Positions 2,747 to 59,077 are shown, counted from the stretch's first letter. The stretch: 64,000 bases of DNA from Alphaproteobacteria bacterium (GCA_965201115.1 OZ241745.1:258308-322307); one strand, 5' to 3'. Notes: generated by a model from the sequence alone, not told the origin. Numbers and translations are program-made.

Positions 2747-3492
2747 GGCGTTCCTCTTTCGATGGGTTCGACGGCCATGCCGCCGGGCGCCTGTTCGGCG
2801 GCGAAGAGTTCGACGGTCGCGACATGGACGCGCCAAGGCGCGCCGATGGCATACACGGCCGCATCGGCTATGTCTTCCGGTTCGAGCAGCGTGAAGCCCG
2901 ACGCGAGCGCGCGGATCGTTTCCGGGTTGTCGATCGCGGTTTCGAAGAATTCGGTGCGCACCCGGCCGGGGCAGAGCTCGGTGACCCGCACGCCCGAGCC
3001 GAGCAGCTCGATTCGCAAATTCTGCGAGAACAGATGCACGGCCCCCTTCGAAGCGCCGTAGATCGCCGTGAACAGCGGATAGAGCCCGGCCACCGAACCG
3101 ATATTGACGATATGCCCCCGCCGCCGCGCGCGCATTCCGGGAAGCACGGCGCGGGTCGCGTGGACGAGGCCGGCGGCATTGGTGGCGAGGGTCGCGTCGA
3201 GATCCTCCGGCGACGCCTGGAGGAACGATTCCATCCCGCGCCCTGTGCCGGCGCTGTTGACGAGGATGTCGAACTCGCGCCCTTCCAGCGCCGCATATAC
3301 GGCGTCGCGGTCGCGTATGTCGAACGCCAGCTGTTCGCAACCGATCTCTTCGGCGAGTGCGGCCAGCCGGCGGGCGCGGCGCCCCGCCGCCGTTACCTCG
3401 ACTCCGCGCGCGGCGAGCGCGCGGGCGCAGGCGCGCCCGATGCCCGCGGTGGCGCCGGTCACCAGCGCGGTCCGATAGTCTCCGATGGCCAC
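2743..3492 (-). CDS. SDR-family short-chain dehydrogenase/reductase
   Basis: TALVTGATAGIGRA glycine-rich NAD(P) motif; YGASKGAV catalytic YxxxK; 249 aa. Confidence 0.85.
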   Translation of the reverse strand: MAIGDYRTALVTGATAGIGRACARALAARGVEVTAAGRRARRLAALAEEIGCEQLAFDIRDRDAVYAALEGREFDILVNSAGTGRGMESFLQASPEDLDATLATNAAGLVHATRAVLPGMRARRRGHIVNIGSVAGLYPLFTAIYGASKGAVHLFSQNLRIELLGSGVRVTELCPGRVRTEFFETAIDNPETIRALASGFTLLEPEDIADAAVYAIGAPWRVHVATVELFAAEQAPGGMAVEPIERGTP

Positions 3493-3661
3493 GTTTCCCT
3501 CCGGTCCGGCCGGCGTTGGCGCCGCGCAGCCCCGGCGTCCGCCGGAGGATCCGCGTGGCGTCCTCTCCCGCGCCGCCCCGGGGAACCGATCCGCGGCCGG
3601 CCCCGGGAGCGCGGCAAGTTCGGGCGGATTGTCCGCCGGCGTTGCGGCGGCGCGTTTCCCG

Positions 3662-4111
3662 CTACTCGGCGGGGGCTTCGCCGCTTTCCCGCCGCTCGTC
3701 GAGCAGCCCTTCGATCAGGCCGTTCAAAAGACCCTGCCCCTCGGTCAGCCGGATAATCTGCTTCTGGAATTCCGTCATCTGCCTCTGGTACGCTTCCGTC
3801 TGCCTCTGGTACGCCTCCATCTGTCTCTGGAACGCTTCCATCTGTCTCTGGAATGCTTCCCTGTCCGCTCGCGCTTCCGCGCGTATGGCCTCGCGGTCGG
3901 CTTTCGCCTCGACGCGCACGACCTCGCGGTCCGCACGCGCTTCCGTGCGTATGGCCTCGCGGTCGGCCTTCGCCTCGACGCGCACGGCCTCGACCTCCGT
4001 CCGGACACCGCGAATTTCGTTGCGGATATCCGCCGCCACGGAAAGCCCGAGCACCGCCAGCGCGACGCCGACGCCGACAATGGCTATGGTTTCCTGCCTG
4101 AGTTGCGCCAT
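3662..4111 (-). CDS. membrane-anchored coiled-coil repeat protein (hypothetical)
   Basis: Chosen start MAQLRQE (ATG 4109-4111, GGAGG upstream). One N-terminal TM helix, then tandem repeats REAIRTEARADREVVRVEAKAD x2 and EAFQRQM/EAYQRQ x4. The underlying DNA shows 66-bp and 21-bp tandem repeats at 3780-4000. Confidence 0.5.
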   Translation of the reverse strand: MAQLRQETIAIVGVGVALAVLGLSVAADIRNEIRGVRTEVEAVRVEAKADREAIRTEARADREVVRVEAKADREAIRAEARADREAFQRQMEAFQRQMEAYQRQTEAYQRQMTEFQKQIIRLTEGQGLLNGLIEGLLDERRESGEAPAE

Positions 4112-4265
4112 CGGGGCCCCTCCCCTCATGTTGCCAAGGGGCAGTATGGCCCGCGGCCGGCGCGGGCGCAACCCGGCGCGGGCGCGGTGGCGCCGCGGCG
4201 CGGCGGGGGCTACACTGCGCGGCGCACGGGGCGCGAAGCGCCGACCGCAACCGGGGGGAAACGCC

Positions 4266-5525
4266 ATGCTTCGCCGAGTCAGGACAATTGCCGCCGCCGC
4301 GCTGCTGGCGCTGGCGGCGGTCGCGGGCGCGCATTCCGGCGCGCGCGCGGAAGAGCCGATCCGCATCGGGTTCGGGATGGCGTTGACCGGCGCGCTCGCC
4401 GGCGCGGGCAAGGCGGCGCTCATCGCCATCGAGATCTGGGCCGAGGAGACCAACGCCGCCGGCGGGCTGCTCGGGCGGCCCGTCGAGCTCGTCTATTACG
4501 ACGACCAGACCAACCCGTCGAAAGTGCCGGGCATATACACCAAGCTCATCAACATCGACCGCGTCGATCTGATCGTGTCGGGCTACGGTTCGACGACCAT
4601 CGCGCCGGCCATCCCCATCGCCATGAACTACGACATGACGTTCATGTCGCTGTTCGGCCTCGCGACCAATGAGGAGTTCCAGTACGACCGTTATTTTCAG
4701 ATACTTCCGGCGGGCGAGGAGCCGCGGTTGAACTGGTCGCGCGGATTTTTCGAGATCGCGGCGGCGCTCGACCCGAAGCCCCGGCGCGTCGCTCTGGTCG
4801 GCGCCGACGCCGAGTTCCCGCGCAACGCCATGATCGGCGCGCGCATCAACGCCGAGGCGGCCGGGCTGGAGGTTGTGTACGACCGCTCCTACCCCTCGAA
4901 CACGGTCGATTTCACGCCGGTGATCCAGGCCATACGGGCCGCGGAGCCCGACATCGTTTATGTCGCCTCGTACCCGCCCGATTCCGCGGGGATTGTGCGC
5001 ACGGTCAACGAAATCGGCATCGAGGGCGTGGCGTTGTTCGGCGGCGGCATGGTGGGCCTGCAATACGCCAGCCTGATGGAGGCGCTCGGCCCGCAGCTCA
5101 ACGGCATTGTCAATTACGACTTCTGGGTGCCCGAGCCGACCCTGCAATTCCCCGGCATCGAGGCGTTTCTGGAGAAATACCAGGCGCGCGCGGCGGACGC
5201 CGGCGTCGATCCGCTGGGCTACTACCTGCCGCCCTTCGCCTATGCCTACATGCAGATACTCGGCGCGGCGGTCGAAGCCGTCGGCAGCCTCGACCAGGCC
5301 GCGCTGGCCGACCGTATCCGCGCCGCCGAGTTCGACACCATCGTCGGCAAGATACGCTTCGGCCGCAACGGCGAGTGGAAGCGATCGCGCGTTCTCATGG
5401 TGCAGTTCCAGGGCATCGCCGACAACCGGCTCGAAACCTTCGAACGGGCAGGGACCCGAGTGGTGCTGCATCCGCCGGAGTGGCGTTCGGGCGCGCCGAT
5501 CGCGCCGTTCGCGGCGGCGCGCTAG
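4266..5525 (+). CDS. branched-chain amino acid ABC transporter substrate-binding protein (LivK/LivJ family, type I PBP)
   Basis: Signal peptide MLRRVRTIAAAALLALAAVAGAHS; IRIGFGMALTGALAGAG...YDDQTNPSK is typical of the Leu/Ile/Val-binding family. ATG at 4266. Confidence 0.85.
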   Translation: MLRRVRTIAAAALLALAAVAGAHSGARAEEPIRIGFGMALTGALAGAGKAALIAIEIWAEETNAAGGLLGRPVELVYYDDQTNPSKVPGIYTKLINIDRVDLIVSGYGSTTIAPAIPIAMNYDMTFMSLFGLATNEEFQYDRYFQILPAGEEPRLNWSRGFFEIAAALDPKPRRVALVGADAEFPRNAMIGARINAEAAGLEVVYDRSYPSNTVDFTPVIQAIRAAEPDIVYVASYPPDSAGIVRTVNEIGIEGVALFGGGMVGLQYASLMEALGPQLNGIVNYDFWVPEPTLQFPGIEAFLEKYQARAADAGVDPLGYYLPPFAYAYMQILGAAVEAVGSLDQAALADRIRAAEFDTIVGKIRFGRNGEWKRSRVLMVQFQGIADNRLETFERAGTRVVLHPPEWRSGAPIAPFAAAR

Positions 5526-5549: not shown

Positions 5550-6416
5550 GTGGCCGGTCTTCTCGGCGACGCGCTGGTTTCCGGCGCGCTCCTGGGCGGT
5601 TTTTACGCCGCCGTAACGATCGGGCTGACGCTCGCCTTCGGCTACCTGAACATCGTCAACATCGCGCATCCGGCGTTCATCGTTCTGGGATCCTATCTCG
5701 TTTTCGCCTGCAACGCGGCGTGGGGGCTCGACCCGCTGCTCGCCGGCGTTGCGCTGATGCCCGCCTTTTTCCTGCTCGGGGCGCTCGTTTACAGCGTCTA
5801 TAACTGGAGTTTCGAGCGGCGCGAGGACGAATCGCTGCGCGGGCTGGCGTTTTTCTTCGGCCTCATGTTCATCGTCGAGGTCGCGCTGATCCTCGTGTTC
5901 GGGGTCGATTACCGGCTGGTCAACGCGCCTTGGATCGGCGAGACGCTGACCGTCGGGCCGGCGGCGCTGCCGTTGCGCATGGCGTTGCCGTTTTGCGTGT
6001 CGGCAGCGCTCGCGCTGTGCATCTGGCTGTTTCTGTCGCGCACCTTTCCGGGCCGGGCGATACGCGCCGTGGCGCAGGACGCGACCGCGCTGCGCCTGGC
6101 GGGCGCCGACCCGGTGAGCGTGCGCCGCCTGGCTTTCGGCATCGGCGTCGCATCGGCGGGGCTGGCGGGCGCGCTGCTCATCGTCATCGGCCCCGTGGAG
6201 CCCGCCATGGGCCGCCTCTATATCGGCCGCGTGTTCGCCATCGTCGTGCTCGGCGGCATGGGCAGCCTCGGCGGCACGCTGGTCGCGGCGCTGTTGCTCG
6301 GCATGGTCGAGAGCGTGACCGCGGCGCTGGCCGGTCCGTCATGGGCGCCGGCGGTGGCGTTCGGGTTTCTGCTGTTCGCGCTGGCGGCGCGCCCCGCCGG
6401 CCTGTTCGGCCGCTAG
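5550..6416 (+). CDS. livH: branched-chain amino acid ABC transporter permease LivH
   Basis: 288 aa polytopic membrane protein. The GVxxGxxYALxALGxT-like N-terminus and gene order are LivH-like. GTG start. Confidence 0.8.
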   Translation: MAGLLGDALVSGALLGGFYAAVTIGLTLAFGYLNIVNIAHPAFIVLGSYLVFACNAAWGLDPLLAGVALMPAFFLLGALVYSVYNWSFERREDESLRGLAFFFGLMFIVEVALILVFGVDYRLVNAPWIGETLTVGPAALPLRMALPFCVSAALALCIWLFLSRTFPGRAIRAVAQDATALRLAGADPVSVRRLAFGIGVASAGLAGALLIVIGPVEPAMGRLYIGRVFAIVVLGGMGSLGGTLVAALLLGMVESVTAALAGPSWAPAVAFGFLLFALAARPAGLFGR

Positions 6417-6418
6417 TC

Positions 6419-7366
6419 TTGCGCGGCGGCGCGCGCTTCCATGCCGGCGCGGCGGCGGTCCTTGCGCTCGGCTACGCGGCGACGCATCTCGTCGCCAACG
6501 AGTACTATTTCTTCGCCGGATACACGGTCCTGCAATACGTCGTGCTGGCGACCGCGTGGAACATTCTCGGCGGCTATACGGGCTATGTGAATTTCGGCGC
6601 CGCCGGGTTTTTCGCCGTCGGCGCCTACACGGTCGTTGCGCTCGGCAAGTTCACGGGCTGGCCTCTGCCGGCGCTCTTGCCCGCCGCGGCCGCCGTTTCG
6701 GGCCTGCTCGGCCTCGCGGCGGGCTGGCTTACACTGCGCCTGCGCGGCGTCTATTTCGCCATCGCGACGCTGGCGCTCGCCATCGTGCTCGAAACGGCGG
6801 TAACGAACTGGGATTATGTCGGCGGCGCGGCCGGCGCGTTCGTCGTGCGGCCGCGCGAGGCGCCGCTGTTTACGAGCTATATCGCCTGGCTCTTCTGGCT
6901 CATGCTGGCGCTCGCGGTGCTGGCGGTCTGCGCGGCGCGCGCAGTGGAAACCTCGCGCCTGGGGCGCGGCCTGGCCGCGGTCCGCGACGACGAACAGGCG
7001 GCGGAAAGCGCGGGCGTGCCCACCCTGCGGCTCAAACTCGCCGCCGCCGGGCTGAGCGGCATGTTGATGGGCCTCGCCGGCGCGCCGCTGGTCTATTACA
7101 CGTCCTATATCGACCCGCTCTCGGCGTTCAATCTCGAATACGCCGTAAACAGCGTGGCCATGCCGATGATCGGCGGCACGGCGACATGGCTCGGCCCCGT
7201 GGTGGGCGCGGTCCTGATCGGCTCGCTGCAACAGGCGGCGACGGTCACCATCTCGTCGGAGCTCAACCTGTTGATCGTCGGCGCGGTGCTGATCGTTTTC
7301 GTCGTCGCCGCGCCGGAGGGCATTGTCGGCCTGGCGCGGCGGCTGCTCGCGAGGCGCCGGCGATGA
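6419..7366 (+). CDS. livM: branched-chain amino acid ABC transporter permease LivM
   Basis: In frame, downstream of the livH stop. Probable TTG start at 6419 (no in-frame ATG near the N-terminus). Motifs NILGGYTGYVNFGAAGFFAVGAY and TSRLGRGLAAVRDDEQAAESAGV are LivM signatures. Stop overlaps the livG start. Confidence 0.7.
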   Translation: MRGGARFHAGAAAVLALGYAATHLVANEYYFFAGYTVLQYVVLATAWNILGGYTGYVNFGAAGFFAVGAYTVVALGKFTGWPLPALLPAAAAVSGLLGLAAGWLTLRLRGVYFAIATLALAIVLETAVTNWDYVGGAAGAFVVRPREAPLFTSYIAWLFWLMLALAVLAVCAARAVETSRLGRGLAAVRDDEQAAESAGVPTLRLKLAAAGLSGMLMGLAGAPLVYYTSYIDPLSAFNLEYAVNSVAMPMIGGTATWLGPVVGAVLIGSLQQAATVTISSELNLLIVGAVLIVFVVAAPEGIVGLARRLLARRRR

Positions 7367-8088
7367 GCGGCGGCGCGCTCGTCTCGATCGAAAGCGTGAC
7401 CAAGCGGTTCGGCGGCTTCGTCGCGCTCGACGGCGTGTCCCTCGCCGTCGCGCCGGGGGAGCGCGTAGGCCTCATCGGCCCCAATGGATCGGGCAAGACG
7501 ACGTTAATCGACTGCGTCGGCGGCGCGCTGAACGCCGATGCGGGCCGCGTTCTGTTCGACGGCCGCGACGTCACGCGCCTGCCCGCGCACCGCCGCGCGC
7601 GGCTCGGCATTGCGCGCAGTTTCCAGATACCGCGCCCGTTCGCCGGCATGACGTGCCTGGAAAATCTCGCGGTGCCGCTGGAATACGCCGCCGGCATGCG
7701 CGGGCGCGCCGCGGTCGAGCGCGAGGCGCGCGCTGTTCTCGAAAGCGTCGGGCTCGACGCCCGCGCCGACGACGGCGCGGGGGCGCTGACCCAGGTCGAT
7801 ATGCGCAAGCTCGAACTCGCGCGAGCCCTCGCCGCGCGGCCGCGCGTGCTGATCGTCGACGAGGCGATGGCCGGCCTCGCGCCCGCCGAGGTGGACGACA
7901 TCCTCGCGCTGTTGCGCCGCTTCAACGACGACGGCATCGCCATCGTCATGATCGAACACATCATGCGCGCGGTGATGGGCTTTTCCGAGCGCGTGGCGGT
8001 GCTCGACGCGGGCCGGCTGATCGCCGAGGGCGCGCCCGGCGCGGTCATGCGCTCGCCCGACGTGGAAAGGGCGTATCTTGGCGAATAG
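7363..8088 (+). CDS. livG: branched-chain amino acid ABC transporter ATP-binding protein LivG
   Basis: Walker A GPNGSGKTT, Q-loop, LSGGxQ-like signature, Walker B LIVDEAMAGL. Confidence 0.9.
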   Translation: MSGGALVSIESVTKRFGGFVALDGVSLAVAPGERVGLIGPNGSGKTTLIDCVGGALNADAGRVLFDGRDVTRLPAHRRARLGIARSFQIPRPFAGMTCLENLAVPLEYAAGMRGRAAVEREARAVLESVGLDARADDGAGALTQVDMRKLELARALAARPRVLIVDEAMAGLAPAEVDDILALLRRFNDDGIAIVMIEHIMRAVMGFSERVAVLDAGRLIAEGAPGAVMRSPDVERAYLGE

Positions 8089-8812
8089 CCTTCGCGTCGA
8101 GTCGGTCTCCGCGGGCTACGGCGCCGCGCGGGTGCTCGATGACGTCTCGATCTCGGTGGGCGACGGCGAGACCGTCGCGCTGCTCGGCGCCAACGGCAAC
8201 GGCAAGAGCACGCTGCTCAAATGCGTCATGGGGCTGGTGCGCCCGCGCGCCGGGCGCGTCTTCGCCACGCTCGACGGCGAGACCCACGAGCTGACGGGGT
8301 TGCCGCCCGAGCGCATCGTCGGCCTCGGGGTGGTGCTGGCCCCCGAGGGCCGCCGGCTGTTCCCCGATCTGACGGTCGAGGAGAACCTGGCGCTGGGCGC
8401 CTACCGCCGCGCCGCGCGGCGCGACATACGCGCGAACATGGAACTGTGCCTCGACACCTTCCCCGTGCTCGCCGACCGCCGCGGCCAGCGCGCCGGCAGC
8501 ATGAGCGGCGGCGAACAGCAAATGCTGGCCATCGCCCGGGCGCTGATGGCCTCGCCGCGCATACTGATCGTCGATGAGCCGTCGGTGGGCCTCGCGCCCA
8601 TCTTCGTCTCGCGGGTGATGGAGAAGATCGGCGAGCTCAAGCGCGGCCGCGGCCTCACCGTGCTGATGGCCGAGCAGAATTTCCACCAGGCCGCGCGCAT
8701 CGCCGACCGCGGCTACGTCATCGTCGGCGGCCGCATCGCGTTCGAAGGCGACAGCGCCGCCGCCCTGCGCGACAACGAGCTCGTCAAGCGCTACTACCTC
8801 GGCGGCGATTGA
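8078..8812 (+). CDS. livF: branched-chain amino acid ABC transporter ATP-binding protein LivF
   Basis: Walker A GANGNGKST, signature MSGGEQQMLAIARAL, Walker B ILIVDEPSVGLAP. TTG start overlapping the livG end. Confidence 0.9.
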   Translation: MANSLRVESVSAGYGAARVLDDVSISVGDGETVALLGANGNGKSTLLKCVMGLVRPRAGRVFATLDGETHELTGLPPERIVGLGVVLAPEGRRLFPDLTVEENLALGAYRRAARRDIRANMELCLDTFPVLADRRGQRAGSMSGGEQQMLAIARALMASPRILIVDEPSVGLAPIFVSRVMEKIGELKRGRGLTVLMAEQNFHQAARIADRGYVIVGGRIAFEGDSAAALRDNELVKRYYLGGD

Positions 8813-8975
8813 GCGCCCCCGTCCGCCGGGGCACATGAGTGTGGGCGGCGCCGGCCCCGCGAGCGGCAATCCCCGTTTCTCCATTGCGCGCGGTACGATA
8901 CCTTGCACGGCCGTGCCGCGCCGACGCGTCGCCGACGCCGGGTTGCGCGCTTCCTCGCCGGAGCGACCCCGCCCC

Positions 8976-11900
8976 ATGACCACTGGCGACCGGCGCCCGC
9001 AGGGCTCGAAAAGCGACGACCTGTTCGGCGCAATCGAAGGCATGTTGCGGCGCAGGAGGACGGAGCCGCAGGTCAAGCAGGTATTGACCCGCATTTTCGC
9101 GGCCCTTCGCTGCGACGCCGAGCCCGAATACCGGACGCCGGCCGGCCCCGCCGATTTCTACCTGCCCGCGCGGCGCATCGTCGTCGAGGTCAAGCCCACG
9201 GGAAAGGCCGACCCAGCCGCGACCTACGGCGGCGCGGGCGCCGCGGAGACGCAGCTCGAGCAGCTCACGCGCTACGTTCGCTCGGAGGAGACGCGCGAAA
9301 ACCGGTCCGGCGATGTCTCCGCCGGCAACGTTCCGTGGGTAGGGTTCCTGACCGACGGGCGCCAATGGCGGCGCTACGAATATCCGCGCGACGGCGGCCG
9401 GCCCGCGCTCATGGACGGCCCCGCCCCGGTCCGTTTCCATCCGGGACAGGCGGCTGAACTCGTCGGCTGGCTGGAATCCGCGATCGCGCGCTCCGCCGGA
9501 AAACCCTGGGTTCCCCCTCATCCATACGATATCTTCGAACCTTTCGAGCGCAGGCTGCACGGGATTCACGAACGCCATTGGGCGTCCGGAGGTTCGGTCG
9601 GGCGCGGCGTCGAAACGAAATCGGGCATATGGTACGACATGCTGCGCGCGTCGGGGATGGCGCCCCGAAGCGCGCCGCACAGGCATCGGCTTTTCGTGCA
9701 ACATACCGTGCTGGTAAGCGTCGCCCGGGCGGTGGTGGGGGCCATCGCCGGCGGCGAGGCCGAACAGGATCCCGATTACGCGCTCAGGGACGGTTTCGCA
9801 GCATGGCCGCAAGGGACGGCGGACGGACGAGCCTGGCAGCGGGAGATATTCGAAACCGCGTCCCGCTACGATTGGCGCGGCCGGGCCGGCGATGTTCTGA
9901 GGACGTTGTACGAAGACGTAATCCCTTCGGAAGATCGCAAGGCTTACGGCGAGTATTATACGCCCGATTGGCTGGCCGCGATGCTCGCGGACGAAATTCT
10001 CGATGATCGGTGGGCGAACGACAGCGCGTCGCGCGCGCTTGCGCCGGGCGATGACCTGTCGGGATGCGGCGTTCTGGACCCCGCCTGCGGGTCGGGGACG
10101 TTTCTGTACCACGCGGCCCGGAAGGTTCTTCGCGCGCAACCGCTTCGATCCAGGGAGTTGACCGGCACGCAAAAAGCCGATGTCGCGGCGGCTCTTGTAC
10201 ACGGTATCGACGTGCATCCGGTCGCCGTCGAAATTGCGCGGGCGACCCTGCTTCGGGCTCTCCCCGCCGCGCCGAGCGGCGGAACGGCCGCGCTGCGCGT
10301 CTATCAGGGCGATTCGCTGGTCGTCCGGCGGGGGCAAAACCCGCTCCTCGAGGAGGGGGAAGGAAAGTTTACCGTTTTTGCGAAAAGCGGGCAATTCGTC
10401 TTGCCCGGCGCTTTCGTGCGCCGGCCCGATTTCTCCCGGGATATCCGGCGGCTGGTCGAAAGCGCGAGCCAAGGCTCCGATCTGCCCCGCGATCTCGCGA
10501 GCCGGAATACGCGCGGGGAATCCCGACCGATCGAAGAGGCGCACGAGAGCCTGCGGAACATATGCCGGCGCGAAGGCAATTCCGTGTGGGCGTGGCTCGT
10601 TATTAATATCGTCGCTCCCACGCTGCTGGCCGAACGCAAGGTGGATCGGATCGTGGCGAACCCGCCCTGGGTCGTCATGAACGACGTACAAGTGGAGGAT
10701 CGCAAAAGCGAGTTCCAGTCTCTTGCCAGGGAGCTTGGCGTATGGACCGGCGGAAAGGGCGCCGCGCGCGCGGATATCGCCGCCGTGTTCATCTCCCGAT
10801 GCAGCGACTTGTACCTTGGCGAGAATGGGCGGGCGGCATGGCTGGCGAACCGCGCGTCGATCGCAAGCGACAGCTGGAAGGGGTTTCGCGAGGAATGCGG
10901 CGCGCGCATGCGCGAGGTTCTCGATCTATCGGAGATAAGGGAACCGCCGTTTACGGGCGCGGCGTCGTGCGCGTGGATCGAAGACAAATCGCGCCCCGCC
11001 GCCGGAATCGCGCGGCGTATCGTCGGAACGTCCGATAATTCCCGGATACCGCGCGATGCGCACTGGGAAGACATAAAGGGCAAAATCGCGCGGGCCGATC
11101 CCCCGCCGCGGATCCCCGCCGGCCCATCGGGTTACCTCGATCGGCAGGGGAAACCCTTGTTTCGCGCGGGATGCAATCTCTTCCCGCAAAACCTCGTATG
11201 CATCGCGAAAATCCAGCGGCGCGGCGATGGCGCGGCATCTTTCGTCACGCGCGGCGCGCGCCACAAGCCCTGGAAGGACGCCGGCAATCTCCAGGGGGTT
11301 GTCCCCGGCGAGCAGATTGTAGAGGGGATATTGCCCGACGATCTGCTGCCGTTCGCGCTTCGGAATCCGGCGACCGCATGCGTGTTGCCGATTCGAAACG
11401 GAGAACTGTCGGAAGAAGCGTTGCGTTCGGAAAGCTACTGGCGCAAGGCGAGCGCGCTGTACGACGATAACCGCGGCGCCCGCGCGCCGAAAACGCTTGT
11501 CGGACATTTGAATTATCAGGGGAACCTGGCGCGGCAACTCCCGTTGTCCAGGGGCGGGAGATCGGTGGTAATCTACAACGGATCGGGGAAACTCTTGCGC
11601 GCGGCCCGCGGCGACGGGTCCGCTCTGGCCGAACATAAATGCTACTGGCGCAGGTGCGCCGGCGCGGACGAAGCGGCGTATATCGTCGCCTGTCTCAATG
11701 CCGACGCGCTTCAGGCGGCGTTCGGACAGGCGCGAAAGAACGACAGGGATTTCGAAGCGCATTTCTGGAAGGATGTTCCCATACCGCTGTTCGACCGGGA
11801 AGATCCCGCGCATCGGAAGCTGGCGGAGTTGTGCGGGAAAGCGGAGGACGCGGCGAAGCGCGTACGGGACGCGGCGGGACGTTGGCGCGCCGAAACCCAG

Positions 11901-12029
11901 GTAACTCTCTCGCGCGCGATCAGGGAGCGGCTGCGCGCGGAAGGCATTGCCGAAGAAATCGACGCGTGCGTTCGAACGCTCGCGCCGGCCCTGTTTTCGG
12001 CGGCGGACGCGCCGGCCGGTCGTCTGTAG
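8976..12029 (+). CDS. MmeI-family Type IIL restriction-modification enzyme (fused PD-ExK endonuclease + gamma-class N6-adenine methyltransferase + target-recognition domain)
   Basis: N-terminal ADFYLPARRIVVEVK fits the MmeI D-X(9-10)-E-X-K nuclease motif. MTase motifs are GEYYTPDWLAAML (X), LDPACGSGTFL (I) and VANPPWV (IV). About 1018 aa from MTTGD (a GGAG lies 10 nt upstream). The track ORF begins at 8835, but that earlier N-terminus is low-complexity. Confidence 0.7.
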   Translation: MTTGDRRPQGSKSDDLFGAIEGMLRRRRTEPQVKQVLTRIFAALRCDAEPEYRTPAGPADFYLPARRIVVEVKPTGKADPAATYGGAGAAETQLEQLTRYVRSEETRENRSGDVSAGNVPWVGFLTDGRQWRRYEYPRDGGRPALMDGPAPVRFHPGQAAELVGWLESAIARSAGKPWVPPHPYDIFEPFERRLHGIHERHWASGGSVGRGVETKSGIWYDMLRASGMAPRSAPHRHRLFVQHTVLVSVARAVVGAIAGGEAEQDPDYALRDGFAAWPQGTADGRAWQREIFETASRYDWRGRAGDVLRTLYEDVIPSEDRKAYGEYYTPDWLAAMLADEILDDRWANDSASRALAPGDDLSGCGVLDPACGSGTFLYHAARKVLRAQPLRSRELTGTQKADVAAALVHGIDVHPVAVEIARATLLRALPAAPSGGTAALRVYQGDSLVVRRGQNPLLEEGEGKFTVFAKSGQFVLPGAFVRRPDFSRDIRRLVESASQGSDLPRDLASRNTRGESRPIEEAHESLRNICRREGNSVWAWLVINIVAPTLLAERKVDRIVANPPWVVMNDVQVEDRKSEFQSLARELGVWTGGKGAARADIAAVFISRCSDLYLGENGRAAWLANRASIASDSWKGFREECGARMREVLDLSEIREPPFTGAASCAWIEDKSRPAAGIARRIVGTSDNSRIPRDAHWEDIKGKIARADPPPRIPAGPSGYLDRQGKPLFRAGCNLFPQNLVCIAKIQRRGDGAASFVTRGARHKPWKDAGNLQGVVPGEQIVEGILPDDLLPFALRNPATACVLPIRNGELSEEALRSESYWRKASALYDDNRGARAPKTLVGHLNYQGNLARQLPLSRGGRSVVIYNGSGKLLRAARGDGSALAEHKCYWRRCAGADEAAYIVACLNADALQAAFGQARKNDRDFEAHFWKDVPIPLFDREDPAHRKLAELCGKAEDAAKRVRDAAGRWRAETQVTLSRAIRERLRAEGIAEEIDACVRTLAPALFSAADAPAGRL

Positions 12030-12241: not shown

Positions 12242-12317
12242 TCCCCGGTAGCTCAGTTGGTAGAGCGGGTGGCTGTTAACCACTAGGTCGCTGGTTCGAG
12301 TCCGGCCCGGGGAGCCA
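12242..12317 (+). tRNA. tRNA-Asn (GTT)
   Basis: TCCCCGGTAGCTCAGTTGGTAGAGC...GGCTGTTAACC...GGTTCGAGTCC...GGGGAGCCA: cloverleaf with a GTT anticodon and CCA end. Confidence 0.9.
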
Positions 12318-12323: not shown

Positions 12324-12494
12324 CTCAGTGTCTGTACCGAAATACTTACCCCGCCGAAGGCGGGGCCCGGGACCGCGGGCATCCTGCCCGCACGTTCCCG
12401 CAAGGCGCGATGTCGGCGGGGAAGCGCGAACGGACAAGACGCCCGCCGGTTCCCACCGTCCCGATAACCGCCGAATTCCGGTACAGACTCTCAG
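12324..12494. mobile_element. MITE-like element (171 bp): IS5/IS427-type terminal inverted repeats flanking a REP-like palindromic core
   Basis: TIR-L ctcagtgtctgtaccgaaat (12324-12343) and TIR-R attccggtacagactctcag (12475-12494) are about 17/20 complementary. A near-identical terminus, atttcggtacagactctgag, closes the IS5 remnant at ~22502. The REP core ccccgccgaaggcggggcccgggaccgcgggcatcctgcccgcacgttcccgcaag lies at 12352-12410 (approx). Confidence 0.5.
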
Positions 12495-20717: not shown

Positions 20718-21846
20718 TTAGCCAGCATTTCTCATACGGGTGGTTGCCGTGCGGTTTGTGCGGCTTTGGTTGGCGTGTGCGTGCGTATTTTCGTGGTTGG
20801 GGGCCTTGGTGGGCGTTTTCGGAGGCGCGTTGGGGCGGTCCGCCGTTTGGCGGCAGGTCGCGTTCCGGGCTGTTCCTGCGTTGTCGAGGGGAAGGGCGAG
20901 AGGGGCCGCGTTACGCCGTGGCGGCGGATAAGCGCTCGCAGGCGATACGGAACTCGCGCTGGAAGGGATGCGCGGCGTTCATGGCGATCTTGACGCGGCG
21001 CACCGCGACGCGGACCCAAGCGCCGATCTTGAGCGGTTTCAGGCGCAGGCTCCCGCATGTGGCGACCGCCGATGCGGCGCAGTGCGCACAGCAACACATA
21101 AGCCATGGACGCGAACCGCAGGCGCAGCCGGTTGGTCCGCATGGCCCGTGTCGACGTGCGGTCGGCGAACAAGTCGAGTTGGCGCTCCTCGATCCGGTTC
21201 TCCATCTCGCCGCGTTGGCAGTAGAGCCGCGCGTAGAGATGCCGGGCGCGGACCCGATGGGTTGCAATCGAGGTGACGACGAAACGCGGGTTGGCCTTGC
21301 CATGGGTCCACTCGGCCTTGGCGGCGACGCGGCGCGCAGCTCCAACTGTCGCGCGTCCTCCGCATGAAATCCTTGAAGCGGCGTTGCGGCTTGCCCGAAC
21401 CCGCGCTGTGCGCTTGCGCCGCCGCCGGTTCGGTCTCGACTTCCGCCACCGGACGGGGGGGGCCGCGCCAAGCCCAACGGGTAATCGACGCCGTTGGCCT
21501 GGCGCCATAAGTCGCATAAAGCGGAAGATAGCAATAGCCGCCGTAGTAGCCGTGGAAAAAACGACCCTCATGGCGACTGTGAAGCCGATCGTCCGTGGCG
21601 TCGAGATCGATAACCAGACGCGCCGGGGCCGCTTGTGCGCCTCCACAAACAGCGTCAGGAACAAATCCTCAATCGCCGCGCCGTCATGCGCGATCCGGCA
21701 ATACCGCGACGACCCCGCGCCCCCCAATTCAAGGCGGTTCAGCGTCGATTTGTCCGCAAGCGGCGCGCAGTCCGAACGACGCGACGCCAACTTCCCTGCC
21801 AAACGGCCATAACCGGATCGTGACGCAACGCATCATGGTCGTTCAG
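20718..21846 (-). mobile_element. IS1380-family insertion sequence, 3' portion only (right end plus transposase residues ~95 to C-terminus; degraded). Interrupted at 21846 by an IS5 element.
   Basis: Terminal sequence gttagccAgcatttctcatacgggt matches the left end of the intact copy at 63461. The transposase ORF 20732..21802 (MAGKLASRRSDCAPLADKSTLNRLELGGAG...YARLYCQRGEMENRIEERQLDLFADRTS) aligns to the second copy from about residue 95. The C-terminal third is out of frame. Confidence 0.6.
20732..21846 (-). pseudogene. IS1380-family DDE transposase, 5'-truncated by the IS5 insertion and frameshifted near the 3' end
   Basis: Reverse-complement identity with copy 2 (63800-63860) ends abruptly at 21846. 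The downstream translation degenerates into low-complexity R/P-rich sequence. Confidence 0.55.
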
Positions 21847-22522
21847 TGTTTGTATCATAATTCGGTCACTGTGATTTGGCTTTGGCCAGTCGCCTGACGA
21901 GGAGCTGGACGCTGGCGAGGAAGAGCCATGCGCGGGCGCTTTCGATGGCGGTTTCGAAGTCCCTGGCGAGGCGGCGGTTGCGATCGAGCCACGCCAGCGT
22001 GCGCTCGACTACCCAGCGTCTGCGCGGCAGTTCGAAGCCCGACGCGGCGTCGGAGCGCTTGACGATCCCGATTGTCCATTGCCCGCGACTGCGCGGTGCG
22101 GTTTCGAGTTTGGGGCCGGCATAGGCGCCGTCGGCGAAGACATGCCGCAGTTCCGGCCAGGTTGCCTGCGCCGACACCGGCAGGTCGGGCGCGCCATCGC
22201 GGTCCTGTCCATCTGCGGTCCGAACGCGCGCGGCGAGCGGAAAACCCGCGGTATCGGCGACAATATGGCGTTTGCGGCCCTTCACCCGCTTGCCCGCGTC
22301 GTAGCCGCGCGGCCCGCCGCTTTCCGTGGTCTTTACCGAGCGGCATGTCCGACTCGACAAGCCGCCACTCGTCATCGATGAGGTCGCTTGCATACCGCAG
22401 GTGCTTGCGCTCATACTGCGCGCGAGCGATTTCGGTCCACATGCTGTGCCTCGCTGGCTTGCTTCATCGCAACCGGCATACACAACATACTGAAATCACT
22501 CAACTCCATTTCGGTACAGACT
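21847..22522 (-). mobile_element. IS5-family (IS427 group) element with an internal ~230-bp deletion (non-autonomous remnant)
   Basis: OrfA N-terminus MWTEIARAQYERKHLRYASDLIDDEWRLVESDMPLGK runs directly, with a frame jump, into SVKTTESGGPRGYDAGKRVKGRKRHIVADT...ADGAYAGPKL...RRWVVERTLAWL...RLARDFE (OrfB DDE region). The ~75 aa normally between them (TTDLREV...QSVK) is missing. The right terminus atttcggtacagactctgag is at about 22502-22521. Confidence 0.6.
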
Positions 22523-22543
22523 CTGAGAGGCGCGTCGCCCGCA

Positions 22544-24754
22544 TTAATCGCCCGCGGCCAGAGCGCGCCGGGCGGCGGACGCCCTGGAATCGTCCGGTCG
22601 CAGTTCCCAAATCCTGCGGCTTGCCGCCCATTTCATGAATGCGGGAACGTCGAACAGCGCGGCGCAGACGCGTTTGCGGCAGCGTTCGGGAAGCAACGCC
22701 TGGTAGCGTCCGGGCGCGACCGAAGCCTCGATGGATTCATAAAGCGACTTTACCGATTCCCGCAACACGGGCGCGCTGGAGACGGCCCGGCGCAATTCGC
22801 CCTCGCCGGGCCCGCCGCTCATGGCGATGCCGCCGAGCCCGGCCAATGGCCGCGGCGACGGCAGCAGGCTATCGAGAACGGTCTCGTAGGCGCTGCCGCC
22901 GAAATGCAGCCATAGCGGCTCGCCGTCGATAGACAGGATCGGCGCATCGTTGTCGCCGAAACCGAGTCCCCGGCGCACATGCGCCGCATATGCGCGCCCT
23001 GTAGGCGCACCGCGGGCCGTATAGCGGAACCCGCCGCGCAACCGGCCCGACTGTCGCGCCGTCAACAGGATTTCGCCTCGCATTATGCGCGCATCCCACA
23101 CGCGGCCGCCCAGGGCGACCCCCTTCTCGATGCCGGAGGGGGCGGCGACGCGGGCAACGATTTCGCCGGTTCCCGAGTCGACAACGGGTATTCCGGCTGC
23201 CGCCGAATCGAAGTTGTCGTGCATTCCGCGTGCGCCGTCGTCGAAAATATCGGCCCATTGTTCCCCGAGGACCAACCGACCCGGTTTACCCGGTTCGAGA
23301 TAGCCCGATTCGATCAACGCATCCAGAATCTCATCCGCCGTTCGATTCTCCGATTCCGGCCATACATCGTCGGCAAGAGCCAACAAGTCGGACCGGCGCC
23401 TGCCGCGCAAGCCGTTTTGAGCGACGAAACTCGCGGCTTGTTGAACGAAAACCGACCAGCGCCGGGCGTAGCCTTGCTGTTCGAGCAGGCCGTCCCTTGC
23501 CGACAACAGCATGGATGCGAAGGCCGCGACGTCCATTCCGTTGCGCGGCAGCGCGAGGACACGGGTGCGCCCGATGCGGCGGCCGGCGCGGCCGATGCGT
23601 TGGAGCAACGCCCGCGTTCCCGACGGAGCGCCGATCAGGGCGACGAAATCGACGTCTCCGATATCGACGCCGACTTCAAGCGTGGTCGTGGCCACCATGA
23701 CCGCGTCGCGGGACGACGAAAACGTGCGCTCCGCTTCTTCGCGCAAGTCGCGCTCGAGGCTGCCGTGATGCGCAAGCACCGTGACGTCTCGCCGGCGCCG
23801 CAGCCTGCCGCTCAAATATGCCGAAAGCGTGTCGCACAGTTCGCGACTGTGGACGAACACGAGAGCCTTGCGCATGGGCTTCGCTTCGTCCGCCGACATC
23901 GCCTGCCATAGCCGCCGCGCAACGGTCTCGTGCGCATTCGCGTCCCTGGCGACTTCGAGGCGCCGCGCCATCGTCGATACGGTATCGGCGGGCTCGACGA
24001 GCATCCATGCAGCGTTATCGGACGGGCCGAAAACGTCGATCTCCCGTGTGCCCGGAACGGGCGCCGCGACAGCGCCGGCGCCAAGCAGCCGTTCCGCCAG
24101 AGCGTCGGGCTCGCCGACCGTGGCGCTTCCGGCGCACATGCGAAGCTCCCCGCGCGCGCGTCGATCGGGCGGAGCTGTCAGGGCGCGAAGCCTCCGTAAC
24201 CGGCCCAACAACCAGACAAGCTGATCCCCGCGCGCGGTTCCGTCGAACAGATGGGCCTCGTCGATGAATACCGCTCGCACTTCGGCCAGGAGATGATCGA
24301 CGGTCTTGCCTTGTTCGACGACCGTGTCGCGTACCAACATCGAATCGAAGGACTCGGGTGTCGTGATTAGCACGAACGGTTGTTTATGCTTGTCGCGCCG
24401 GTCGCCGGTCTGCCGACCGCACGTCAACCCCATGCGTTCCAGAGGCGTTTCCAATCGAGCCGCGAGATCGTTGACCAATGATCGGGTCGGGGCAACGACA
24501 AGCAACCGAATTCTGCGGGCCGGATCGCCGCCGGCCTCGCGAAGCCGCGCGAGCAGGGGCGCCACAACAGCTTCGGTCTTCCCGGACGCGGTAGCGGACA
24601 CAACGAGCGCATTCTTGCCGGCGAGAATCGGCGCGATAGCGCGCCGCTGAATCTCCGTCAGCCGCCGAAAACTGCCGAAGAAAGCCGGGCCGGCGGAGCC
24701 CAGCCGCTTAACGATGTCAGCGTCGGAAACCATTGAGGCGCACTTTCGTCGCAC
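22544..24754 (-). CDS. Lhr-like DEAH-box superfamily-2 helicase (BrxHI-like); last gene of a five-gene operon
   Basis: 736 aa. Motif I ATASGKTEA, Ia VVAPTRSL, II FIDEAHLF, III, and VI QRIGRAGR. The Lhr-core-like C-terminal extension suggests BrxHI. The start sits 2 nt from the stop of the upstream ATPase gene. Confidence 0.75.
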   Translation of the reverse strand: MRRKCASMVSDADIVKRLGSAGPAFFGSFRRLTEIQRRAIAPILAGKNALVVSATASGKTEAVVAPLLARLREAGGDPARRIRLLVVAPTRSLVNDLAARLETPLERMGLTCGRQTGDRRDKHKQPFVLITTPESFDSMLVRDTVVEQGKTVDHLLAEVRAVFIDEAHLFDGTARGDQLVWLLGRLRRLRALTAPPDRRARGELRMCAGSATVGEPDALAERLLGAGAVAAPVPGTREIDVFGPSDNAAWMLVEPADTVSTMARRLEVARDANAHETVARRLWQAMSADEAKPMRKALVFVHSRELCDTLSAYLSGRLRRRRDVTVLAHHGSLERDLREEAERTFSSSRDAVMVATTTLEVGVDIGDVDFVALIGAPSGTRALLQRIGRAGRRIGRTRVLALPRNGMDVAAFASMLLSARDGLLEQQGYARRWSVFVQQAASFVAQNGLRGRRRSDLLALADDVWPESENRTADEILDALIESGYLEPGKPGRLVLGEQWADIFDDGARGMHDNFDSAAAGIPVVDSGTGEIVARVAAPSGIEKGVALGGRVWDARIMRGEILLTARQSGRLRGGFRYTARGAPTGRAYAAHVRRGLGFGDNDAPILSIDGEPLWLHFGGSAYETVLDSLLPSPRPLAGLGGIAMSGGPGEGELRRAVSSAPVLRESVKSLYESIEASVAPGRYQALLPERCRKRVCAALFDVPAFMKWAASRRIWELRPDDSRASAARRALAAGD

Positions 24755-24755
24755 G

Positions 24756-26153
24756 TCAGGCGTCGGCGCCTTGGGCCGCGATGTCGGGCGCGATATCCAA
24801 CAGCTCCACAGCCTCGCGAACGACGGTTCGCGGTACCGGGCGCTCGATATCGGTCAAGCGGCGCGCGTCGTGGCGTTCGGCGAGGGAATCGAGCTGGCTC
24901 TCGAGCCACTTGCGATCTACCGCCGCGGTGCGCTCCGGGTACGCCTGCCGGTACAAGTCGAAGACGCGTCGTAGCACATCCCGGATCTGCCGAAGGTCGG
25001 GTTCGACCGCCGAAAAGGCGTGCAAGTGCGAATCCTCAAAGCGCCGTTGCACGTCCCGCACGGCGTCCTCCCCGGTCGCCGTTTCGGCGCCCCCGGGCGC
25101 GCCGCCGAACGCAATTACGAGCGGCAGCGGATACCCGGAAACGACAAGGCGGGCCAACGCGGAAAGTAAATCGGCCCGGCGGTTTCGACGACCGGCGATC
25201 GCGGCGGCCCAGCCGGCGGTGCTTGCATATTCGACGTCGAGCTCATCGAGGATGACAAGCAGTCCCTTGGCGCCGACGCGCAACGCGCAAGCGGTCCACG
25301 CCTGAAGCAAATCGCAAAATCTGTCGGTGCGTTCGTGTACCCGGTGCGCCCTGATAGACGGAAGGCGGCCGTGGTACCGATACTTCAGCTGCCTGAACTT
25401 GTCTTGCGCCTGACTTGCGGACAGATCGAGCGTGAAATAATCTTCAAGAACCTGCAACGCCTCGGCGTCAGCCAGTACGCTTCCCGGGATCGTGCGAATT
25501 GCGGACGCAAGCATCTTCTCGCCCCGCGATGTCGGACGCCAGTTCCCGCTGTTCGCGCGTAACGACGGAAGCCACTCGCGCAATCCGCGCGGCGCCGCTT
25601 CGCCCGGCTTTCCGAGGGAACCGAGAAGCCTGCTCATGAGCGCCATGGGATCCGACAGCCGAACGCCCCCGCCGTCGAGAATCAGGGAGCTCGACGCCAT
25701 GCCCTTGCCGGATGCGATTGCGCGAAGCAGGGTCAACAGATGCGTTTTCCCGCTGCCCCATTCGCCTTCGACGAGTACCGCGCCGGCATCGCCGCCGACG
25801 GCGCGCGACACGATGCGCGCCATATCCGCCTCGATTCGCTCCGTTCCCGCGCTGAGCCGGCGAACATGCGCTTCAAGCGGTTGGCCGAGCCTCAACGCCA
25901 GCACGCCCTGGCGCGCTTCGATCTCGCTTTGCGACATGCTGGGCGGCGAGTCGCGTCCGCGCCCGGCGGCGTCGGCGCCTTGTACATCCGGCGCCGGCTC
26001 GGCGTTCGTATCCAGCCCGAGCTCGCGCGCCGGCACCCAATCCTTCATGTAGCCGAAATCGACGCAAGCGCGGGTTTGGGCGCCGCGATTCTCGACCGAA
26101 ACGATTTTACCTGTGCCGAGCGATGGATGCCAAACATCGTCTCCGGCTCTCAT
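24756..26153 (-). CDS. P-loop ATPase paralog 1 (DUF2791/BrxD-like) with an N-terminal UvrD-C-terminal/Tudor-like domain
   Basis: Start taken at MRAGDD, whose ATG overlaps the upstream gene's TGA (ATGA coupling). GDDVWHPSLGTGKIVSVENRG...VDFGYMKDW fits the GxxVxHxxFGxGxV Tudor-like pattern. Walker A GEWGSGKTHLL; Walker B LLVILDELD. Confidence 0.65.
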   Translation of the reverse strand: MRAGDDVWHPSLGTGKIVSVENRGAQTRACVDFGYMKDWVPARELGLDTNAEPAPDVQGADAAGRGRDSPPSMSQSEIEARQGVLALRLGQPLEAHVRRLSAGTERIEADMARIVSRAVGGDAGAVLVEGEWGSGKTHLLTLLRAIASGKGMASSSLILDGGGVRLSDPMALMSRLLGSLGKPGEAAPRGLREWLPSLRANSGNWRPTSRGEKMLASAIRTIPGSVLADAEALQVLEDYFTLDLSASQAQDKFRQLKYRYHGRLPSIRAHRVHERTDRFCDLLQAWTACALRVGAKGLLVILDELDVEYASTAGWAAAIAGRRNRRADLLSALARLVVSGYPLPLVIAFGGAPGGAETATGEDAVRDVQRRFEDSHLHAFSAVEPDLRQIRDVLRRVFDLYRQAYPERTAAVDRKWLESQLDSLAERHDARRLTDIERPVPRTVVREAVELLDIAPDIAAQGADA

Positions 26154-29416: not shown

Positions 29417-29579
29417 CGGGCGCCTCCCATGCGGCGGTCCAGCGGGTAACGCGCGCGTTCCGCCGTTGCAGCGCCGACGATAGCGGCCGCCGCGCGCCGC
29501 GCAACCCTGTCGCCGGGGGCGCGATGCGGTGGAGGGGGGCGGCCGGGCAACCGGTCGGCATCGTTCCGCCCGCGCAGTG

Positions 29580-29660
29580 GCGCTGTCGGCGAGACGCCCG
29601 CGCCGAAGGCGCGGACTGCCCGGGACCGCGGGCGTCCCCGCCCGCACGTCCCGACCGTCC
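29580..29660. repeat. REP-like repeat, variant B, in the divergent promoter region between the defense-like operon and kefB-like gene
   Basis: gacgcccgcgccgaaggcgcggactgcccgggaccgcgggcgtccccgcccgcacgtcccgaccgtcccg. Confidence 0.5.
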
Positions 29661-29915
29661 CGAACGAGGCCGGGCAGGGCGCGTCGCCGGCGCGCGCGCC
29701 CGGACTGCCGGTCGTCTGGACAACCCGCGGATATATTTCTATAATGTTCCCATGACCGCCGCCTCCCGCGCAACCTCCGCCCGCGCCGCCGCTCGGCGGG
29801 CGCCCGGCGCGCCGGCCCGGGCGGGAGCCCCGCAGAGCCCCGCGGATCCCCGCAACGCCCTTGCCCGCCCGGCGCCGCGCGTCGCGCGGCGGGGATATGC
29901 TATGTTCGGCGGGGC

Positions 29916-57303: not shown

Positions 57304-58816
<1,513 letters not shown>

Positions 58817-59000
58817 CGCGCCCCCCGCGGGCCAGCCCGCAAAGGCGCGTCGCCTCAACATACCCCGCCGCCGGCGGCGCAAGCCCCGGGCGGCGGACCG
58901 GCGCCCGAAGCCCCCGCGCCGCCGCCTGCGTATCCCTTCCCCGGAGCCGAAGCGCAGCGCCCCGCAACGATGGCGCCGCAACGCGCCGGCCGCGCGGAGC

Positions 59001-59077
59001 GGGCCTGTAGCTCAGTCGGTCAGAGCGCACGCCTGATAAGCGTGAGGTCGGTAGTTCGAGTCTACCCAGGCCCACCA
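59001..59077 (+). tRNA. tRNA-Ile (GAT) in the 16S-23S spacer
   Basis: GGGCCTGTAGCTCAGTCGGTCAGAGCGCACGCCTGATAAGCGTGAGGTCGGTAGTTCGAGTCTACCCAGGCCCACCA. Confidence 0.95.

Follow-up and report, generated by a model that had tools for sequence, protein, structure and literature searches.

A predicted single-chain Type IIG restriction-modification enzyme with remote homology to MmeI in an alphaproteobacterial genome

A 64,000-nucleotide stretch of DNA from an Alphaproteobacteria bacterium (GCA_965201115.1 OZ241745.1:258308-322307; hereafter the window) carries a long gene, at 8976-12029, whose product combines a putative nuclease motif with the motifs of an adenine methyltransferase. Does this gene encode a complete restriction-modification system in one polypeptide and, if so, does the enzyme belong to the MmeI family (Type IIL), as a reading of the DNA alone (hereafter the sequence-only reading) had proposed? 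Our analysis indicates that the gene is likely to encode a Type IIG restriction-modification enzyme that is self-contained in a single chain and shares its domain order with MmeI and DrdV. By sequence and profile comparison, however, the protein is a remote homolog of the MmeI family, related through its nuclease, connector and the first part of its methyltransferase, and not a member of it.

Gene, domains and selection

Translation from the ATG at 8976 to the stop codon at 12027-12029 on the + strand gives a protein of 1017 amino acids. The open reading frame (ORF) itself opens at an upstream ATG (8835), to which the 8976 ATG is internal. A metagenomic contig of identical nucleotide sequence (L089), on which genes were called independently, has the same internal start, and a homolog that is 95% identical to the window protein (P0001) is likewise 1017 amino acids long. 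Third-position GC periodicity identified the + frame as the coding frame, and a 635-aa antisense ORF (8784-10691) was rejected, by codon-position GC, as a high-GC artefact. A chance ORF is ruled out because a search of 5.8 billion proteins returned more than 4000 homologs. Among the matches listed, 117 below the three near-identical ones were 37-43% identical over 80-99% of the query and 901-1159 aa in length, and the few that carried a name were called 'N-6 DNA methylase'.

The sequence-only reading had described a single polypeptide uniting a PD-ExK-type nuclease motif, the motifs of a gamma-class N6-methyladenine (m6A) methyltransferase and a long C-terminal recognition region, with no partner gene beside it. 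This description was supported: the motifs (D60-X10-E71-V-K73, GEYYTP, LDPACGSGTFL and NPPW) were each present in the one ORF when their coordinates were checked (Table 1), and examination of the flanking genes revealed no adjacent partner. Nuclease and methyltransferase domains within one ORF are the arrangement by which Type IIG enzymes are recognized, with catalysis by the window protein being predicted from its sequence.

To describe the family, we aligned 44 sequences (alignment A1). Motifs X, I and IV are invariant across this alignment, and their gamma-class order (X, I and then IV), with a target recognition domain (TRD) C-terminal to them and then a helical tail, is the order expected of the MmeI family and Type IIL. 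An AlphaFold2 model computed from A1 (predicted local distance difference test score, pLDDT, 86.5; predicted template modeling score, pTM, 0.80) comprised five regions, namely a mixed alpha/beta region, an all-helical region, the methyltransferase, a beta-rich to mixed beta-alpha TRD and three terminal helices, with the boundaries given in Table 1. Within aa 306-620, Pfam detected N6_Mtase, UPF0020, a partial MmeI_Mtase match that barely exceeded its cut-off (27.9 versus 27 bits, profile positions 17-83 of 259) and an Eco57I match that fell below it (21.6 versus 25.3 bits). The best PADLOC model was that for Type IIG (REase_MTase_IIG, E 1e-46, aa 302-662). The NCBIfam matches were weak; BREX-2 PglX, the strongest of them, scored 41 bits where the cut-off is 400. 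Neither Pfam nor PADLOC detected a helicase domain in the window protein, in which aa 181-300 form a short helical connector, and the protein therefore falls outside the definition of Type ISP.

Evidence for the TRD comes from the model and from whole-chain Foldseek matches to MmeI, DrdV, CamA and M.BseCI, and TaqI_C was matched by 5 of the 44 homologs. It ends at the sequence VPIP (aa 934-937, nt 11775-11786), each residue of which (V934, P935, I936 and P937) is at least 90% conserved; by position, and as an analogy only, this would correspond to the 'FPFP' motif of MmeI (PMC2731913). The C-terminal region of MmeI also contains conserved helices, whose function is not known (PMC2731913).

Selection on the gene was estimated against a relative encoded on another contig (L001), the product of which is 87.5% identical by tblastn (P0002, 88% by BLASTP). 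The ratio of nonsynonymous to synonymous divergence (dN/dS) was 0.18 overall, with values of 0.24 for the nuclease, 0.09 for the connector, 0.16 for the methyltransferase, 0.19 for the TRD and 0.29 for the tail. All parts of the enzyme are under purifying selection.

Table 1. Positions of the enzyme gene, its domains and motifs, and neighboring or related loci. Coordinates are those of the window, except in the last row, where they refer to the contigs named.
Feature	Position	Strand	Basis
Whole gene: 1017-aa single-chain restriction-modification enzyme (predicted)	8976-12029	+	ORF, homologs, model, dN/dS
N-terminal PD-(D/E)xK-type nuclease domain (predicted), aa 1-175	8976-9500	+	conservation, predicted topology, profile alignment
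Putative nuclease motif DFYLPARRIVVEVK (D60, E71, K73; D-X10-E-V-K)	9153-9194	+	
Putative catalytic residue E30	9063-9065	+	
Putative catalytic residue D60	9153-9155	+	
Putative catalytic residue E71	9186-9188	+	
Putative catalytic residue K73	9192-9194	+	
Conserved Q96 and Y100 of the nuclease domain	9261-9275	+	
Helical spacer/connector, aa 181-300	9516-9875	+	all-helical in AlphaFold model
Gamma-class N6-adenine DNA methyltransferase domain, aa 301-650	9876-10925	+	Pfam, PADLOC, motifs
Motif X, GEYYTP, aa 325-330	9948-9965	+	
Motif I, LDPACGSGTFL, aa 367-377	10074-10106	+	
Motif IV, NPPW, aa 562-565	10659-10670	+	
Target recognition domain, aa 651-940	10926-11795	+	model, Foldseek, TaqI_C in homologs
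C-terminal helical region, aa 941-1017	11796-12026	+	three helices in model
liv binding-protein gene, within an ORF	3357-5525	+	
liv permeases	5550-6416; 6413-7366	+	
liv ATPases (the second livF-like)	7363-8088; 8078-8812	+	
163-bp gap, livF-like stop to enzyme start codon	8813-8975	+	
tRNA-Asn (GTT), downstream neighbor	12242-12317	+	ARAGORN, Rfam
171-bp MITE-like element, 20-nt terminal inverted repeats	12324-12494		inverted repeat search
Lhr-type helicase	22544-24754	-	PADLOC BrxHI 5e-76, SngC 6e-59
Three consecutive BrxC_BrxD-domain ATPases (BrxD/SngB-like)	24756-26282; 26150-27457; 27450-28625	-	
389-aa ORF, end of Brx-like cluster	28604-29773	-	
P0072 and its PLD+SNF2 neighbor	L007 4631-11288; L008 832-7489		

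The N-terminal nuclease domain

The predicted restriction activity would depend on the N-terminal domain, the conservation of which we examined in 27 nuclease-bearing homologs; the distant ones share 25-39% identity with the window sequence. Of the domain's residues, D60, K73, Q96, Y100, W121, T126, D127 and W131 were invariant (27/27), and E30, E71, G57 and G76 were conserved in at least 90%. The N-terminal consensus of these homologs reads E..V...L..L...LG.D.E.EY.T..GPAD.YLP.RR..IETK..G.A.P ... ETQ.EQL.RY ... PW.GILTDG..WW.W.

A model of the domain (pLDDT 85) exhibited the topology a-a-b-b-b-a-b-b-a. D60 was located inside the second strand in this model and just before that strand in the full-length model, while the models placed E71 in the third strand with K73 right after it and E30 at the opening of the second helix. 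In the MmeI nuclease, the Asp begins strand 2, the Glu and Lys end strand 3, and a conserved Glu stands just before helix 2 (PMC2731913), a description that is matched by the predicted topology of the window nuclease.

As a reference for the MmeI family, we assembled an alignment of six genuine members encoded by genes from plasmids (A3); three of these were scanned with Pfam as controls and matched all five MmeI domains at 69-303 bits. Comparison of A1 with A3 by hhalign gave a probability of 96.9% (E 1.6e-10) over 349 columns, from query position 31 to 425 and template position 27 to 425. The alignment places D60, E71, K73, G76, Q96 and Y100 on the invariant D65, E75, K77, G80, Q89 and Y93 of A3, where D65, E75 and K77 are the equivalents of MmeI D70, E80 and K82. 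The helical connector of the window protein is contained in the part of this alignment that covers the MmeI-family spacer. Loss of the D, E and K residues in an alignment with MmeI had been named beforehand as the result that would overturn the nuclease assignment; all three are retained and fall on the MmeI triad, mutation of which abolishes cleavage by MmeI (PMC2731913). Within the family, 8 of the 44 members match Pfam MmeI_N at E <=1, and two of them (P0029 and P0040) pass its cut-off (27.7 versus 27 bits).

Several results weigh against this assignment. The window protein itself reached neither Pfam MmeI_N nor any other nuclease model. When the profile of the nuclease domain alone was aligned with A3, the same register was recovered, but with a non-significant hhalign probability of 1.6%. 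In a Foldseek search with the isolated domain model no match was significant; AbaSI came first (E 0.06), and some further PD-(D/E)xK nucleases ranked lower. The only PDB sequence matches of the domain profile were weak, although these too were PD-(D/E)xK nucleases (3K93, E 0.011, and EcbAgaN, E 0.32) aligned on D...ExK. The assignment therefore draws on motif conservation, predicted topology and collinear alignment, with no independent significant match for the domain, and on these grounds we regard it as well supported.

A variant branch of the family also bears on the role of this domain. In a subclade represented by P0047, P0055, P0072, P0110 and P0114, the N-terminal domain is replaced by unrelated sequence that lacks D...ExK. 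The gene for P0072 (1095 aa), the one member of this subclade that was looked up, lies directly downstream of a gene for a 1092-aa protein with phospholipase D (PLD, HKD) and SNF2 helicase domains, which is matched by the PADLOC model 'HKD+Snf2' (1.6e-53) and is also DrmD-like. The two proteins appear to constitute a two-gene, probably ATP-dependent version of the system. Pairing of a nuclease-less subclade with such a partner is what would follow if stand-alone members obtain their nuclease from the N-terminal domain.

These observations also bear on the possibility that the window protein is an orphan, or solitary, N6-adenine methyltransferase. Its N-terminal domain would then either persist as a relic with no catalytic role or serve in DNA binding or regulation, and the protein would only methylate, for epigenetic regulation or protection against restriction. 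The failure of the isolated domain to match a nuclease significantly (by Pfam, PDB sequence profile or Foldseek) is consistent with such a role, as are the database label 'N-6 DNA methylase', the only one given to the family, and the stable inheritance of the gene at a chromosomal site beside housekeeping genes. Against it stand the invariance of D60 and K73 and the conservation of E30 and E71 in at least 90% of homologs, the distant ones of which share such low identity with the window sequence, as well as the dN/dS of 0.24 for the domain. The alignment of these residues with a triad required for cleavage, and the separate PLD-nuclease/helicase partner of relatives without the domain, further argue against an orphan methyltransferase, which we therefore consider unlikely.

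A single-chain enzyme that probably both methylates and cuts DNA is thus preferred, and the genomic habit of its nuclease-bearing homologs is that of a stand-alone gene. Four distant nuclease-bearing homologs (P0046, P0077, P0018 and P0064) are encoded in four unrelated neighborhoods composed mostly of housekeeping genes, and at these loci there was no shared partner and no Brx, Pgl or second methyltransferase neighbor. As a separate observation, the opposite strand of the P0046 locus carries, immediately downstream, a gene for a 93-aa HTH_3 protein (L003 11104-11385, -); this could be a controller (C) protein, and the window contains no equivalent.

By analogy with MmeI and DrdV, the window protein is predicted to have nuclease activity, a recognition site and a fixed cleavage distance, and it may methylate one strand only (the 'IIL' property). 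The TRD and methyltransferase would together bind a short, probably asymmetric site, and in the presence of S-adenosyl-methionine an adenine would be methylated in the sites of the host. On unmethylated foreign DNA, the helical connector would instead hold the single nuclease site (E30, D60, E71 and K73) at a fixed distance. Because each chain has one active site, a double-strand break may be made only after several DNA-bound molecules assemble, as suggested by analogy with published enzymes (bioRxiv 10.1101/2021.01.06.425610; PMC2731913).

Relationship to MmeI and other systems

Whole-chain comparison of the model against the PDB by Foldseek gave near-equal scores for PglX/BrxX, DrdV, MmeI, CamA, M.BseCI, LlaGI/LlaBIII and BpuSI, with E values from 3e-15 to about 3e-13 and identities of 9-14%; the TM-score for MmeI, normalized to MmeI, was 0.57. 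The closeness of these scores places the protein in a wide structural class that takes in MmeI, DrdV, PglX and the methyltransferase-TRD proteins of Type ISP.

The protein resembles the MmeI family (MmeI, NmeAIII, CstMI and others; PDB 5HR4; Pfam PF20464, PF20465, PF20473, PF20466 and PF20467) in several respects. Like these enzymes, the window protein is a single polypeptide that lacks a partner gene and whose length falls in the range of about 900-1200 aa. Its domains follow the MmeI order: a PD-ExK nuclease comes first, then a helical spacer, the gamma-class m6A methyltransferase, the TRD and finally a helical C-terminus. Within the nuclease, the two align at the D, E-x-K, G, Q and Y positions, and a short proline motif closes the TRD in each (VPIP in the window protein, FPFP in MmeI). 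There are also differences: D and E are separated by ten residues in the window protein (X10) and by nine in MmeI (X9), an 11-residue insertion lies between K73 and Q96 of the window protein, and the TRD of the window protein cannot be aligned by sequence with that of MmeI.

Could the window protein then be a true MmeI-family enzyme (Type IIL sensu stricto) that has only diverged, and that would be expected to methylate one strand and to cleave about 20/18 nt away? Collinear domain order, matching nuclease positions, the partial MmeI_Mtase match just over its cut-off, the TM-score of 0.57 on MmeI and the conserved VPIP at the place of FPFP would all be compatible with membership. The published definition of the family demands E<1e-20 over the entire length, in addition to D, E and K residues aligned with MmeI D70, E80 and K82 (PMC2731913). 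Although the three residues align, phmmer matched the window protein to MmeI (5HR4) with an E value of only 5e-4 and only over aa 290-412, and the family profile reached 4e-6 over the same interval. The hhalign alignment with the six family members stops at aa 425, short of the remaining methyltransferase and the TRD, and similarity at profile level does not extend beyond that residue. Pfam detected none of MmeI_N, MmeI_hel, MmeI_TRD and MmeI_C in the window protein (69-255 bits in the controls), so that the partial match to MmeI_Mtase is the only one among the five MmeI domains. Foldseek scores for DrdV, PglX, CamA and Type ISP proteins are on a par with that for MmeI. The assignment to the MmeI family made in the sequence-only reading is therefore not supported, and a diverged Type IIL sensu stricto enzyme now appears improbable.

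Instead, the window protein is part of a distinct family of moderate size. When 1.84 billion representative proteins were scanned in full with the profile of the N-terminal domain, 308 clusters were matched at E <=0.001 and 230 at <=1e-10, and nearly all of the 150 matches listed began in the first 50 residues of proteins that were full-length at about 900-1055 aa or were shorter and possibly partial; on this basis the family comprises about 300 clusters. A tblastn search of plasmids revealed only relatives of 24-28% identity. Among the 15 plasmid records listed, 10 carried the label 'N-6 DNA methylase' and a further one was named 'restriction endonuclease BseRI', and no characterized enzyme was identified among them. 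A 131-aa MmeI fragment, used as a query against the 5.8-billion-protein database, returned short fragments only. More tentatively, the family could represent a biochemically uncharacterized sister lineage of MmeI of about 300 clusters at 50% identity, in which the nuclease domain occurs only N-terminally in proteins of about 1000 aa, the TRD has its own architecture, cleavage possibly has its own geometry, and the nuclease module has been exchanged between clades (PD-ExK versus pairing with PLD+SNF2). If so, a single methyltransferase-TRD chassis would switch between fixed-distance, Type IIL-like cutting and ATP-driven restriction of the Type ISP/DISARM-like kind.

Among characterized enzymes, DrdV (Type IIL, 1029 aa; PDB 7LO5 and 7LVV) is of near-equal length and has the same four-part architecture. 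Its Foldseek match (E 3e-15) covered about 1110 alignment columns at a TM-score of 0.40-0.42, as expected of flexible multi-domain chains, whereas similarity between the sequence profiles was marginal (E 0.08). DrdV methylates slowly at single sites, and its cleavage is licensed by the assembly of several DNA-bound molecules (bioRxiv 10.1101/2021.01.06.425610).

Type ISP enzymes (LlaGI/LlaBIII) contain a related methyltransferase-TRD module (Foldseek E about 2e-13). Unlike these enzymes, and unlike two-gene systems that pair a nuclease-helicase with a methyltransferase, the window protein has neither a helicase/ATPase domain nor a neighbor of that kind. Cleavage at a fixed distance, with no translocation, would be the expected consequence.

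Type IIG enzymes of the Eco57I/BpuSI type likewise have a nuclease at the N-terminus, joined in one chain to a gamma-class methyltransferase and a TRD; BpuSI is among the Foldseek matches, and the Type IIG model of PADLOC was the best match in the defense library. Many Eco57I/BpuSI-type enzymes require a separate companion methyltransferase. In contrast, none is adjacent to the window gene.

The BREX proteins PglX/BrxX (PDB 8Q56, 8C45 and 9EWZ) share a related methyltransferase-TRD module with the window protein and provide both its top Foldseek match (E 3e-15) and its best NCBIfam match. PglX is not known to have a PD-ExK nuclease domain, or to work other than together with PglZ, BrxC and other BREX genes. 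The window protein differs in its conserved PD-ExK domain, in its score with PglX models and in having no adjacent Brx gene.

These last two comparisons raise the possibility of a Type IIG protein that needs a partner encoded elsewhere, either a second methyltransferase, as with Eco57I, or the remainder of a dispersed BREX-like system in which a PglX-like protein would act with BrxD- and BrxHI-like genes. Points in its favor are the PglX matches by NCBIfam (albeit at 41 bits) and Foldseek, the weak match to the Eco57I methylase model, and a cluster of BrxC_BrxD-domain ATPases and a BrxHI-like helicase at 22544-28625 that shares the low third-position GC content of the enzyme gene (see below). 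Yet the PglX score misses its cut-off tenfold, and the nuclease domain would be foreign to a PglX protein. There is no PglZ among the window ORFs scanned, tRNAs, rpsD and other genes intervene before the cluster, no second methyltransferase flanks the gene, and the four distant homologs have no Brx, Pgl or second methyltransferase neighbors. Dependence on a partner is thus unlikely. An outright assignment as the PglX of a BREX system was rejected on the flanking liv genes, tRNAs, TauD and rpsD, the 41 versus 400 bits and the lack of PglZ in the scanned ORFs.

Taken as a self-contained Type IIG enzyme, the window protein is an intact, ordinary bacterial anti-phage enzyme of a little-studied family distantly related to MmeI. 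Conceptually it adds nothing new to restriction-modification biology. Its practical interest is that recognition, methylation and cleavage reside in one protein, so that new families can yield new cutting specificities, and that single-chain enzymes are tractable for the engineering of specificity, as has been done for MmeI. The gene leads one to expect, in the source genome, a motif methylated to m6A and a barrier against DNA from outside. 'Putative Type IIG/IIL restriction-modification enzyme' would be the fitting annotation for the sizeable family now labeled only 'N-6 DNA methylase', and the subclade paired with PLD+SNF2 illustrates the swapping of nuclease modules.

Genomic context

The gene lies, as first described, between a liv-type ABC transporter operon upstream on the same strand and a tRNA-Asn gene downstream. 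A consensus scan of the 163-bp gap after the livF-like gene revealed neither a sigma-70-like promoter nor a terminator, so read-through transcription from the liv operon is possible. In the L001 relative this gap is only 35 bp (the livF-like gene ends at 7965 and the enzyme gene starts at 8001).

G+C content at third codon positions (GC3) is 0.76 in the enzyme gene and 0.87-0.94 in its neighbors, which suggests a horizontal origin. Since the L001 relative keeps the liv-then-enzyme arrangement at a synonymous divergence (dS) of 0.40, the acquisition appears to be old; the gene thus looks to have been horizontally acquired and long resident at this locus. The nearest relatives of the liv operon in the genome collection were from uncultured Rhodospirillales and other Alphaproteobacteria (only 64-68% protein identity), so the source, itself probably an alphaproteobacterium, is likely to lack a close representative there. 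We did not find a syntenic empty site: a scan of genome contigs with the livF-like protein gave liv loci of <=68% identity, none near tRNA-Asn, TauD or rpsD, a look-up with TauD found nothing, and a look-up of the exact protein found one contig, L089, which is identical to the window.

Downstream of the tRNA is a 171-bp element resembling a miniature inverted-repeat transposable element (MITE), beyond which are TauD (-), tRNA-Glu (-), rpsD (+) and tRNA-Pro (-). On the strength of the tRNA and MITE, the site had been called a typical integration hotspot. That description is not borne out, as adjacency to these two elements is all that was found; there is no integrase at the locus, and direct repeats around the gene are limited to short, GC-rich chance matches with no att-like repeat. 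The terminal repeat of the MITE recurs at 22508-22527, at the end of an IS5-type insertion sequence (IS) element, while the internal sequences are unrelated. Given this match of the terminal repeats, the 171-bp element is probably a MITE derived from the IS5-type family of the DDE_Tnp_1 transposase at 21866-22483 (-), which is itself an IS remnant next to a DDE_Tnp_1_4 fragment (20732-21802, -).

The sequence-only reading had also noted that neither PglZ nor BrxC was nearby. The first part stands, as PglZ was absent from every ORF scanned across the window. The second requires correction, since three BrxC_BrxD-domain ATPases and a BrxHI-like helicase are encoded at 22544-28625. This operon-like cluster lies beside the IS remnants, 10.5-20.8 kb downstream of the enzyme gene (10.5-16.6 kb for the ATPases and helicase), and its GC3 (0.72-0.78) is as low as that of the enzyme gene. 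Between the two lie the tRNAs and rpsD, genes for a cytochrome c, a short-chain dehydrogenase and a molybdopterin oxidoreductase, and the IS remnants. Because tRNAs, rpsD and metabolic genes intervene, and because homologs of the enzyme have no such neighbors, a functional link between the two is very unlikely. The cluster could be a Shango-like or other uncharacterized defense system with a triplicated ATPase.

Other defense genes are present further along the + strand. An abortive-infection pair comprises AbiLi (31656-32963; PADLOC 1.4e-82; Pfam AAA_21/AAA_15) and AbiLii (32830-33621; 1.2e-22); with a GC3 of 0.76 for AbiLi, this pair too was probably acquired horizontally. A 631-aa ATPase encoded at 36932-38827 contains AAA_21, AAA_15 and AAA_23 domains, as in the OLD/Gabija/Septu-like ATPase class, and may represent a further defense gene.

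The window also contains a complete rRNA operon at 57304-62593 (+), in the order 16S, tRNA-Ile, tRNA-Ala, 23S, 5S and tRNA-Met. Finally, a 2071-aa ORF at 41522-47737 (-) has native codon bias (GC3 0.88) and no Pfam or PADLOC match; its product, which has a signal-peptide-like N-terminus and is rich in Gly, Ala, Val and Thr, may be a large secreted protein, either an adhesin or autotransporter-like.

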